A DNA stretch of 47,425 bases from a virus (Duplodnaviria; Heunggongvirae; Uroviricota; Caudoviricetes): IMG/VR virus record IMGVR_UViG_2778261162_000007; one strand, 5' to 3'. The translations under genes and the position numbers were made by a program. Below the pieces are notes generated by a model. The model saw only the letters and a list, made by a program, of their open reading frames with translations. It ran no database searches and was not told the origin of the DNA. Positions 1,553-14,826 of this stretch are shown one piece after another. How positions within the stretch are numbered: position 1 is the stretch's first letter; each line of letters begins with the position of its first letter.

Positions 1553-1741
1553 TCACGAGGACTGAAGTTTCTCGCAATTAAAATTTATCAGTTTTACTTT
1601 CTGCTCTCTGGAAACGCCTGCTTCTTTTTTACCTGAGAGCATTTTTTCGCATTCTGATTTCGTTAGTTTAGATTTTGAATATCTTGTCCAGTTAGTAGGA
1701 GTGCCACCTTCCTTTTCAATTGTAGCGGTAATTTTATACAT
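1553..1741 (-). CDS. YdaC-like small prophage protein
   Basis: Start MYKITATIEKEGG preceded by GGAGG Shine-Dalgarno; the ORF track offers a longer form to 1813. Confidence 0.45.
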   Translation of the reverse strand: MYKITATIEKEGGTPTNWTRYSKSKLTKSECEKMLSGKKEAGVSREQKVKLINFNCEKLQSS

Positions 1742-12908: not shown

Positions 12909-13682
12909 TTAGAACTGTTCATTGCCATCGAGGTTAGGTAGCATAATTTTTTCAATCAAGGCGAGAGCCTTTTTGTCCCGGTCAGCGAAGTATTTCGGGG
13001 CATATTGCGGCAACCAAATATTGTTAAAATGTTCTTTGAAATCTGCTAAATATTCATTTGGGTACAGCCTTGCAGGGTATACGCGACCATCGGGATATTC
13101 ATGGTCATAGGTAGGGAATGTTTTGGGTTCTACGTTTCTATTATCTCTTAACCATTGTGAAAATACTCTTCCTTGTGAAATGTCAGGAACCATTTTTTCT
13201 GGGAGTGTGTACCCTGCTTGTTCAAGAGGTGCAACCAAGTTGAATGTCAGTTCATTAAGAATAGAAAAGTGCGTGTGAGGAATTCTACTACGATTAACCA
13301 TGTACCGTTTTAAATGTACAGGCATTTCTGCTGTAGTTCTTTCCCCTGACATCCATTCACGAACCCATCTTGAAACCTGGACTGCAAATTTGGGCGATAG
13401 CCACTGCGCTAGATTAATAGCGATGTCAGGATGCACCCATGTCCCTTGGTTTTCAGGTCTTCCACCTTTAAATGATTGAATTAACTCCGATATGGGAATT
13501 CCCATATCGCGTGATAATTCGTCAAAAAACTCTTGAGTAGTTTTGAGTCTAGTGTAATCAGAGAGCAGTTTGCCCGCAGTTCTACACATTGATGTGGCGT
13601 TTATGTAACCATCTTTGGCACGTAAATGTATTATTTCGCCGTCAATTTCACGAGAAATCAAAGATAATTGAAAGGATGTCAT
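12909..13682 (-). CDS. KilA-N domain protein
   Basis: N-terminal region ...IHLRAKDGYINATSMCRTAGKLL...GGRPENQGTWVHPDIAINLAQWLSPKFAVQVSRWV matches the KilA-N pattern. Confidence 0.7.
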   Translation of the reverse strand: MTSFQLSLISREIDGEIIHLRAKDGYINATSMCRTAGKLLSDYTRLKTTQEFFDELSRDMGIPISELIQSFKGGRPENQGTWVHPDIAINLAQWLSPKFAVQVSRWVREWMSGERTTAEMPVHLKRYMVNRSRIPHTHFSILNELTFNLVAPLEQAGYTLPEKMVPDISQGRVFSQWLRDNRNVEPKTFPTYDHEYPDGRVYPARLYPNEYLADFKEHFNNIWLPQYAPKYFADRDKKALALIEKIMLPNLDGNEQF

Positions 13683-14204
13683 TGAAAATTCCTCAAGTTG
13701 GAGAGTTCTGGAACATTAAGGCGAGGTGGCCGTAATGCACCATCTGTAATCTTTTGATACTGACGTAATCGGGCCTGATGTGCAACGCCTTGCAAGTATG
13801 TAACTCATTGAAAACGATCATTTTTATCTATTGACATCAAATGGCAAACTGTCATTGTGCGGCTATGGCAAGTGGCAAATGCTTATAAATCATATGGATA
13901 TAAATAGTACAGAAAGAGTTGTTTTCTCTAGGATATGAGTATACGCCCAATGCTGATTGGTTGAATTTTGTTCTTGTTTTAAAGGGTAAGAGTTTAAAGT
14001 GTTGGCAGTGATGTATTGGATAGTTAGAATTGCTGTGGGTGCTTGAGGCTATCTGCCTCGGGCATGATCACCAAAGGTAGATAGAGAAAAGCCCCAGTTA
14101 ACATTACGCGTCCTGCAAGACGTTTAACATTAATCTGAGGCCATATCTATGCGACACATAGAGATTAGCCTCTTACGGACCGAAAGGTCAAGGAGAAGCA
14201 GGCT

Positions 14205-14360
14205 ATGAAGCAGCAAAAGGCGATGTTAATCGCCCTGATCGTCATCTGTTTAACCGTCATAGTGACGGCACTGGTAACGAGGAAAGACCTCTGTGAGGTA
14301 CGAATCCGAACCGGGCAGACGGAGGTCGCTGTCTTCACAGCTTACGAACCTGAGGAGTAA
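14205..14360 (+). CDS. Hok/Gef-family type I toxin (51 aa)
   Basis: MKQQKAMLIALIVICLTVIVTALVTRKDLCEVRIRTGQTEVAVFTAYEPEE closely resembles Gef/Hok; AGGAGAAG RBS; sits in a 1.1-kb AT-rich non-coding island. Confidence 0.85.
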   Translation: MKQQKAMLIALIVICLTVIVTALVTRKDLCEVRIRTGQTEVAVFTAYEPEE

Positions 14361-14826
14361 GAGACCGGGCGAGGGAGAAATCCCTCGCCACCTCTGATGT
14401 ATTATGCATCCTCAACGCACCCACACTTAACCAGCTTTGGCGGGTTTATTTTATCTGTAAATATTTTTATAAAAATAATGCCCACGCACAGCATAAAACA
14501 AAAAGTATTACAGATAAAAAAGGAGCGTAATGTGCAGATTTGTTGTTTTCCATATTTACTCACCTTAATATGATTAATCCTGATAGGGTTGTTATTTCAG
14601 TGGTTTTCAAATGAGATATTATGGTGATCTGGTAGATTTGCATAACATTAAAATTTAATTTGTTTAACCGCTTTTAATAATAAGCGTTGTTTTTATCCCA
14701 GCAATCTGTTGTTTGGTTTTTATTCCATCAATGTGGGGGCTTTACACTGGAGCCAGTTTATTTATACTTCATTCGTCAGCCTGAACAACTGGCATCTGCT
14801 GCACTGCGCCATCGAGAGATTGAGAA

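Follow-up and report, generated by a model that had tools for sequence, protein, structure and literature searches.

A probably functional hok/sok cassette with a short mok leader in a Rac-like prophage

The hok/sok system of plasmid R1 (Gerdes and co-workers; Le Rhun et al. 2022, PMC9841398) mediates post-segregational killing and depends on how the messenger RNA (mRNA) of its toxin gene is folded. In the R1 model, the translational activator (tac) box of the full-length mRNA pairs with the fold-back inhibition (fbi) box, and the ucb box pairs with the Shine-Dalgarno (SD) sequence of the mok leader. In the truncated mRNA, the partner of tac is ucb and that of the mok SD is dcb, and a terminal hairpin protects the trimmed molecule (PMC9841398). 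A prophage-borne member of the family, hokW-sokW of Sp5 (Sakai prophage 5 of Escherichia coli O157:H7), has been validated experimentally (Takada et al. 2021, PMC8621323). The HokW protein is toxic, and sokW RNA neutralises it, partly via RNase III and Hfq; exposure to mitomycin C leads to depletion of sokW and induction of HokW in dependence on RecA, and the locus makes lysis faster and phage release twofold higher after this treatment (PMC8621323). The locus described here lies between positions 13683 and 14826 of a 47,425-nucleotide stretch of Caudoviricetes DNA (IMG/VR record IMGVR_UViG_2778261162_000007), hereafter called the window. Its central part, 14002..14456, carries recognisable or candidate counterparts of every hok/sok element and, with a probability of about 80%, is an intact, Sok-regulated hok/sok cassette of the type I toxin-antitoxin class, a moron in a Rac-like lambdoid prophage. 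The cassette is of an already known kind: it belongs to the hokD/hokW lineage of the hok/sok family, which is widespread and has a named toxin gene and a characterised close homologue, so that the finding of hok/sok itself adds little that is new.

The cassette and its described relatives

The toxin gene occupies 14205..14360 on the plus strand. An earlier note on this DNA, made from its letters and open reading frames (ORFs), had called it a 51-amino-acid Hok/Gef toxin with a ribosome-binding site, and this was borne out: the ORF matches Pfam HOK_GEF (PF01848) with 82.9 bits (cut-off 22; E = 1.2e-23) and PHROG 251, 'MokW-like host killing', at 2.8e-33, and an AAGGAG SD sequence (14190..14195) stands 9 nt ahead of the ATG. 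The 51 residues are identical to those of HokD (RelF) of E. coli K-12. The exact sequence is that of the UniRef cluster HOKD_ECOLI, is present on at least 1,000 contigs, and is labelled hokD (WP_000813254.1) by PGAP in strains A17 and G3/10. HokD protein is toxic when expressed, and adenosine-to-inosine recoding by TadA has been reported for hokB and also for hokC, hokD and hokE (bioRxiv 10.1101/2025.08.07.668861). In the window, the predicted recoding site, changing Tyr to Cys, would fall in the UAC(Tyr47)-G context at 14343..14346.

The remaining landmarks were placed by alignment to an R1-type IncFII hok/sok locus, phage Rac, mEp460 and Sp5 hokW-sokW. The earlier note had proposed such an alignment as a check, and once run it located both the fold-back elements and a candidate promoter of the antisense RNA. 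On the plus strand, a promoter-like site TTGGCA-17-TAGAAT (14002..14030; 10 of 12 matches) has its -10 hexamer in line with that of R1 hok, and the predicted full-length hok mRNA, about 420 nt long, would run over 14037..14455, its 5' end being taken from position 1 of the Rfam model discussed below and from the R1 alignment. At the very start of the transcript is the tac box GGGUGCUUGAG (14037..14047), followed by the ucb, or anti-SD, box GCCCC (14091..14095), the mok SD GAGG (14137..14140), which is the same motif as in R1, and a dcb-like box GCCUC (14168..14172). Beyond the toxin gene, the fbi box CCUCAACGCACCC (14410..14422) can form 12 bp plus one bulge with tac. The last element is a weakened intrinsic terminator, ACCAGC-TTTG-GCGGGT plus TTATTTTAT (14430..14454), where relatives have ACCCGC-TTCG-GCGGGT plus TTTTT.

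A GC-rich hairpin after the toxin gene had also been noticed earlier, and it proved to be a perfect 9-bp stem (14368-14376 / 14381-14389) closed by a GAAA loop, GGCGAGGGA-GAAA-UCCCUCGCC, spanning 14368..14389. Relatives carry compensatory variants of it, GGCGGGGGA/UCCCCCGCC. By analogy with R1, this hairpin would sit at the end of the trimmed mRNA and protect it.

The predicted folds of the window RNA reproduce the R1 switch between full-length and truncated forms exactly. In the full-length RNA (14037-14456; minimum free energy -162.6 kcal/mol, z-score -6.9), nucleotides 1-11 are predicted to pair with fbi and GCCCC with the mok SD, which would thus be sequestered. In the 3'-trimmed RNA (14037-14396; z = -6.5), tac is predicted to pair instead with AAGCCCC and the mok SD with GCCUC, forming the hairpin that is the Sok target. 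In a comparison of 89 distinct cassettes, the hokD group has an invariant fbi box, and in distant members tac and fbi covary, reading GGGCGCUUGAG/CUCAAGCGCCC in Photorhabdus and GGGCGCUU/AAGCGCCC in Pantoea. R1 has the pair GGCGCUU/AAGCGCC, and other enterobacterial loci have GGGUGCU/AGCACCC.

The antisense RNA had been described as not annotatable by eye. The alignment did place a candidate for it on the minus strand, with a promoter made of a -35 hexamer TTGACC (14191..14186), an 18-nt spacer and a -10 hexamer TAATCT (14167..14162), together with a terminator hairpin. The promoter was missed by a strict scan and was located by homology instead: its position is homologous to that of TTGCGC-17-TATCCT in R1 and TTGCCT-17-TAACCT in Sp5. 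The predicted Sok RNA would be about 70 nt long (14086..14155, minus strand, with ends estimated to about +/-3 nt). It would consist of an unpaired 5' tail, a long hairpin serving as terminator and a U-rich GCUUUUCUCU tail (-26 kcal/mol, z = -4.2), and it is complementary to both the mok SD and the mok AUG.

The Rfam family RF01794, named 'sok', matches the window at 14037..14207 over the full model (1-157; 101 bits, gathering score 59, E = 4e-23). This match was considered as the antitoxin gene and rejected, because it lies on the plus strand, that of hok, and ends at the hok ATG; it falls in the same way in Sp5 and the R1-type plasmid. What the model marks is therefore the leader of the hok mRNA, and Sok is its complement. 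Public records are no clearer. The mok frame, Sok and the RNA elements are unannotated in all records examined, and 'Mok' labels are used inconsistently. At hokW, the Sakai RefSeq record has only a 70-amino-acid 'regulatory protein MokC for HokC' (locus L144, 4420..4632), which is the in-frame, N-terminally extended Hok; hokW was in neither the early region nor the left arm of Sp5 and was found at its right end, annotated only under this 'MokC' name. In mEp460 (L003, 1682..1837), the hok ORF itself is labelled 'MokW protein', and in an IncFII plasmid (L005, 558..659), the Hok coding sequence is called from an internal start. Together with the Rfam model on the leader strand, these labels illustrate an annotation gap.

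Among characterised loci, Sp5 hokW-sokW is the closest, with 90.7% nucleotide identity from tac to fbi and 47 of 51 Hok residues identical. Both loci are prophage-borne and align end to end from the promoter -10 to fbi; tac, ucb, fbi and the 3' hairpin are common to both, and the candidate sok promoter of the window lies where Sp5 has its own. The loci differ in the distance from the mok ATG to the hok ATG, which is 57 nt in Sp5 (in frame, hence the annotated 70-residue 'MokC') and 56 nt in the window (19 codons, with an ATGA overlap), in the sok promoter (TTGCCT-17-TAACCT against TTGACC-18-TAATCT) and in the C-terminus of the toxin, VDYESEK in Sp5 and TAYEPEE in the window. The Sp5 locus lies at the right end of its prophage and lacks the terminator hairpin that comes after fbi in the window, where the locus stands between a KilA-N gene and Q-proximal genes.

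The K-12 locus, in the cryptic prophage Qin, has the identical toxin and is 95.7% identical over the segment that begins with the hok SD and takes in the 3' hairpin, fbi and the terminator. There, however, hokD lies downstream of relBE as a fusion and lacks tac, ucb, the mok start, the Sok target and the sok promoter, whereas in the window the leader is complete and relBE is absent; K-12 hokD is followed by rem, the toxin gene of the window by an AT-rich spacer and then a DUF1367 gene. The K-12 organisation, with hok as the third gene of relBEF and neither mok nor sok, is thus not that of the window. Upstream of the hok SD, the K-12 locus has no homology to the window, its leader having been lost to the relBE fusion; the window thus holds the complete form of that locus, and it shows what a complete ancestor of the truncated K-12 hokD locus looks like.

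The R1 locus has only 23 of 51 toxin residues in common with the window, although architecture, element order and predicted folding switch are the same and RF01794 matches both. In R1 and the window alike, 19 codons of mok precede the start of hok. R1 mok goes on to 70 codons and overlaps hok, while mok in the window ends at 19, and the Sok hairpin is 19 nt longer in the window than in R1. The R1 system is carried on a plasmid and mediates post-segregational killing; the copy in the window is on a prophage and is not known to do so.

If the cassette works as R1 and Sp5 do, the sigma-70 promoter TTGGCA-17-TAGAAT would make an mRNA of about 420 nt starting at 14037. In this RNA, tac would pair with fbi and the ucb GCCCC would sequester the mok SD, and the full-length form would therefore be neither translated nor bound by Sok. 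Slow trimming from the 3' end up to the stable hairpin at 14368-14389 would remove fbi, and the trimmed RNA would refold, with tac paired to ucb and the mok SD paired to dcb within the target hairpin. The Sok RNA of about 70 nt, made from TTGACC-18-TAATCT, would then pair across the mok SD and AUG, block mok translation and trigger decay by RNase III. Once the unstable Sok has been exhausted, ribosomes would translate the 19 codons of mok through the hok SD, stop at the UGA within AUGA and start hok there by termination-reinitiation coupling. HokD would enter the inner membrane and kill the cell or help its lysis. By analogy with the described systems, the cassette would most likely serve to kill cells that lose the prophage or in which it is induced.

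The short mok leader and the state of the locus

The mok leader ORF (MRHIEISLLRTERSRRSRL plus TGA; 14149..14208, plus strand) has 19 codons, against 68-72 in most members of the family, and its stop codon (14206..14208) overlaps the hok start as ATGA. The earlier note had seen the frame end after 19 codons, which is correct, and had taken this for a truncation of the coupling frame. That second part does not hold. Saturating mutagenesis in R1 included five substitutions that generate stop codons within the 19 mok codons before the hok start, all of which abolish toxicity, while stops beyond the hok start leave it unaffected; its authors concluded that translation of mok has to reach the hok SD but need not go beyond it (PMC9841398). 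As R1 requires just the first 19 codons of mok, and mok in the window is that very segment, the short frame is not a sign of decay.

Natural loci point the same way. The distance between the two ATG codons is 56, 57 or 58 nt, produced by two small indels. The 57-nt form is the majority; it is in frame with hok, gives a product of 68-72 amino acids and includes Sp5 and the R1-type plasmid examined. The 58-nt form (for example in phage Rac, MN652886) is out of frame and has 68-69 codons, and the 56-nt form of the window lacks, by comparison with it, a dinucleotide just after the mok ATG. These natural spacings support what was concluded from mutagenesis, namely that mok translation matters no further than the hok start. 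A 63-nt probe across the 56-nt allele (14128..14190) has matches of at least 99% identity in 778 of the 5,426 complete E. coli genomes on which all genome counts are based (about 14%), and the allele is found in at least 12 unrelated flanking or prophage contexts. Of 84 loci with this allele, 78 have the sok promoter sequence of the window. The same 84 distinct loci, retrieved from IMG/VR by the DNA of the allele itself and not via the toxin, encode a full 51-residue Hok in 79 cases (94%), compared with 77 of 90 control loci (86%) that have the common in-frame 57-nt allele. The 56-nt spacing also has independent origins in loci of E. ruysiae, E. whittamii and Erwinia, again with hok intact. 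We therefore read the short mok as a common natural allele that is functional, with hok coupled to it by termination-reinitiation at AUGA; the coupling step is an extrapolation from the R1 work. The allele offers a ready-made minimal-mok variant for the study of coupling.

The locus could instead be a decaying or silent remnant, in which the 2-nt deletion in mok uncouples hok, the toxin is never made and the cassette hitch-hikes in prophages. Besides the length of mok, such a reading could appeal to the degraded stem and T-run of the terminator, to K-12 hokD, which is itself truncated at its 5' end, to sister genomes that share the 5' flank and have a 3'-truncated hok, and to the inactivity in post-segregational killing that a preprint reports for chromosomal hok loci (bioRxiv 10.1101/2025.08.07.668861). 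It remains unlikely, because the mok stop comes after the hok SD, on the hok start, and mok translation up to that point is all that R1 requires (PMC9841398), and because an allele found in about 14% of complete E. coli genomes keeps hok no worse than the in-frame control does in an unbiased sample of loci. The tac, ucb and fbi boxes, both SD sequences and the sok promoter all match the family consensus, and other genera have evolved the same spacing with hok intact. With its elements complete and its allele common, the locus is better described as ordinary and probably functional than as decayed, which the earlier note had named as the outcome that would overturn its reading.

Several points nevertheless weigh against an intact, Sok-regulated cassette. 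The -10 hexamer of the sok promoter, TAATCT, agrees with the consensus at 3 of 6 positions and is separated from the -35 by 18 nt, and the strict promoter scan of the region did not report it. The hok terminator is weakened in both stem and T-run relative to relatives. The stops tested in R1 lie either clearly before the hok start, with loss of toxicity, or clearly after it, with no effect, and none overlaps the hok AUG. Native chromosomal hokA, hokB and hokC loci gave no post-segregational killing in earlier work cited in the preprint (bioRxiv 10.1101/2025.08.07.668861). Lastly, of the first genomes listed that share the 5' flank and the short-mok leader, most have lost the last part of hok together with fbi and the terminator, and a DUF1971 gene on the minus strand has taken their place. 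This replacement (L004, E. coli 7/2, NZ_CP023820, 2023..2572; matches H2-H15) leaves a 41-residue remnant that is annotated as 'Hok/Gef family protein'.

Another feature of the leader is the variability of the few bases after the mok ATG. In a cassette that is otherwise more than 90% conserved, these bases (14152..14160 in the window) are the most variable part, and they also carry the frame-shifting indel. They make up the loop of the hairpin targeted by Sok, to whose 5' tail they correspond (in loci L002, L003 and L087-L099, among others). Such variability would fit a diversified Sok specificity among the several hok copies of a genome. A YUNR U-turn motif was looked for in the target loop and set aside as a distinguishing feature: the window allele lacks it, and so do several relatives with the 57-nt spacing.

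Three modules between KilA-N and DUF1367

The stretch 13683..14826 had been described as one AT-rich, non-coding island with a single recognisable ORF. It consists of three unrelated modules with separate distributions and is not one unit. The first (13683..14001; 37.9% GC) is the upstream region of a minus-strand KilA-N gene, the second is the hok/sok cassette of about 455 bp (14002..14456; 49.0% GC) and the third is a spacer (14457..14826; 33.8% GC). The label 'AT-rich' is thus apt for the two flanks and wrong for the cassette, and the two AT-rich flanks are separate modules outside the hok/sok system. The Hok ORF is certainly there; mok and a conserved minus-strand ORF of 28 codons (14467..14553) are present as well, so that neither 'single' nor 'non-coding' fits. 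The neighbouring genes were also confirmed: the KilA-N gene (12909..13682, minus strand; Pfam E = 4.3e-27) lies on one side, and genes for DUF1367, YbcO and DUF1133 lie on the other.

That the whole 1.1 kb was acquired horizontally as a single AT-rich island, with its repeats and AT-rich DNA serving the toxin locus, is highly improbable. Its overall GC content is indeed below that of the window (41.0% against 47.4%), and hokD is the sole annotated feature in it. The parts, however, occur independently of one another: the 5' flank (13683..14024) is in 118 of the genomes and the 3' flank (14452..14826) in 1,373, while the whole 1,144-nt query has matches in 4,811 genomes, at a median of 2 places per genome, a count that we attribute to hok cassettes of this kind. 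Phage relatives have only 14025..14451 in common with the window, which gives the approximate ends of the conserved cassette. The 3' flank is found with hok or without it, in the latter case after the DUF1971 gene, and ahead of differing downstream genes. The cassette itself, with its 49% GC, is not AT-rich at all.

A locus 99.9% identical to that of the window is present in E. coli strain A17, inside a Rac-like prophage with the gene order racR, ydaS, ydaT, replication genes, KilA-N, hokD, DUF1367, DUF1364, DUF1133 and lysis genes. Elsewhere in the window (1557..1735, plus strand), Rfam finds a match to RalA, the antitoxin small RNA of RalR, scoring 218 bits where the gathering score is 170. 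The Rac-like prophage therefore has a second type I toxin-antitoxin system.

In the 5' flank, which adjoins KilA-N in the loci examined (the window, L001 and L004), three direct ATGGCAA repeats had been reported. Two are exact (13841 and 13865), and the third reads GTGGCAA (13872). The shorter TGGCAA occurs at 13842, 13866 and 13873, that is, three times within 38 nt, where about 0.004 such clusters would be expected by a post-hoc estimate. As a motif in its own right, ATGGCAA was rejected, since the heptamer count across the window is at chance (202 matches against 199 expected) and only the local clustering is unusual. The region also contains an 11-nt direct repeat, CAAATGGCAAA/CAAGTGGCAAA (13838-48 and 13869-79), and a minus-strand promoter-like site TTGCCA-16-AAAAAT (13847..13820). 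On that strand, the TGGCAA copies read TTGCCA and overlap the -35-like hexamer upstream of KilA-N. The cluster (13838..13879) could be an operator or promoter cluster; because the 5' flank is about 99.7% identical in nearly all of the 118 genomes, its conservation is uninformative on the repeats.

A 28-codon frame in the 3' spacer

The only part of the stretch that might be new is in the 3' spacer. This is orf28, a minus-strand frame of 28 codons (87 nt; MENNKSAHYAPFLSVILFVLCCAWALFL; 14467..14553) that forms a separate module and is preceded, 5 nt before its ATG, by the SD sequence AAGGTGAG (the reverse complement of 14559..14566). Its loci were retrieved with an anchor outside the ORF, which gave 137 occurrences in 70 distinct regions. 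The frame is kept at 28 codons in all 137 and is the only ORF in the 3' flank that is both universal and constant in length. There are 13 peptide variants; variable sites number 5, 9 and 13 at codon positions 1, 2 and 3, and the ratio of nonsynonymous to synonymous polymorphism (pN/pS), taken against the window, is 0.19-0.45. The comparison shows a frame that is conserved, hydrophobic and, judged by these substitutions, under purifying selection. Other ORFs of the flank, including a plus-strand one of 58 amino acids (14397..14573), were rejected as coding, as their lengths vary between variants and they have no Pfam match.

In the 25 genomes sampled, there is no annotation under the 3' flank. 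The orf28 product matches no Pfam, PHROG or NCBIfam family (a weak match to Lp6.6 was discounted, its 14.6 bits falling short of the cut-off of 35) and is absent from a collection of 15 billion proteins, and its peptide strings were not found in the papers searched. Nor is it in the hokD-rem spacer of Qin in K-12. It is a probable gene for a 28-codon membrane peptide that has never been annotated, and a candidate small membrane protein in E. coli prophages. A fuller account, in which orf28 is a real unannotated single-helix membrane peptide of 28 amino acids in about a quarter of E. coli genomes, maybe with its own promoter and antisense RNA, and the 56-nt mok is a natural 'minimal mok' coupled at AUGA, is tentative and in our estimate falls somewhat short of even odds. 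That orf28 is a new module like a type I toxin, set back to back with hok/sok, is distinctly improbable, and much less likely than the gene simply being real.

Some features around orf28 bear on its possible expression. It is the first of three conserved blocks in the 3' flank. The second, an AT-rich block at 14637..14703, has a minus-strand promoter-like sequence TTGCTG (14703..14698)-16-TATTAT (14681..14676), assigned with low confidence, about 122 nt upstream of orf28; its position is conserved in 58 of 66 variants. Facing it is a plus-strand promoter-like TTTCCA-16-TATGAT (14547-74), and a plus-strand terminator-like hairpin follows at 14669-86, in which pairing is kept between sequence classes (CGC/GCG in one and CGT/ATG in the other). 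As a lead only, this site and hairpin could yield an RNA antisense to the 5' untranslated region of orf28. Consensus folding of the alignment (alifold) gives weak signals here, with z-scores of -2.8 and -1.9 and one to two compensatory pairs, and an antisense or toxin architecture at orf28 therefore remains speculation. A 20-nt inverted repeat (14449-68 / 14500-19) is not shared by the diverged class and was dropped.

The third block includes a plus-strand promoter-like site upstream of the DUF1367 gene, TTTACA-16-TATACT (14741..14768), in which the hexamers are invariant and the 16-nt spacer varies in sequence. A 7-bp inverted repeat, GCCAGTT / AACTGGC (14752-58 / 14787-93), is found at the same site. 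The surrounding segment, 14739..14802, is highly conserved, and in many other prophages 42 nt of it (14761-14802) recur some 110 nt downstream of hok, ahead of different genes.

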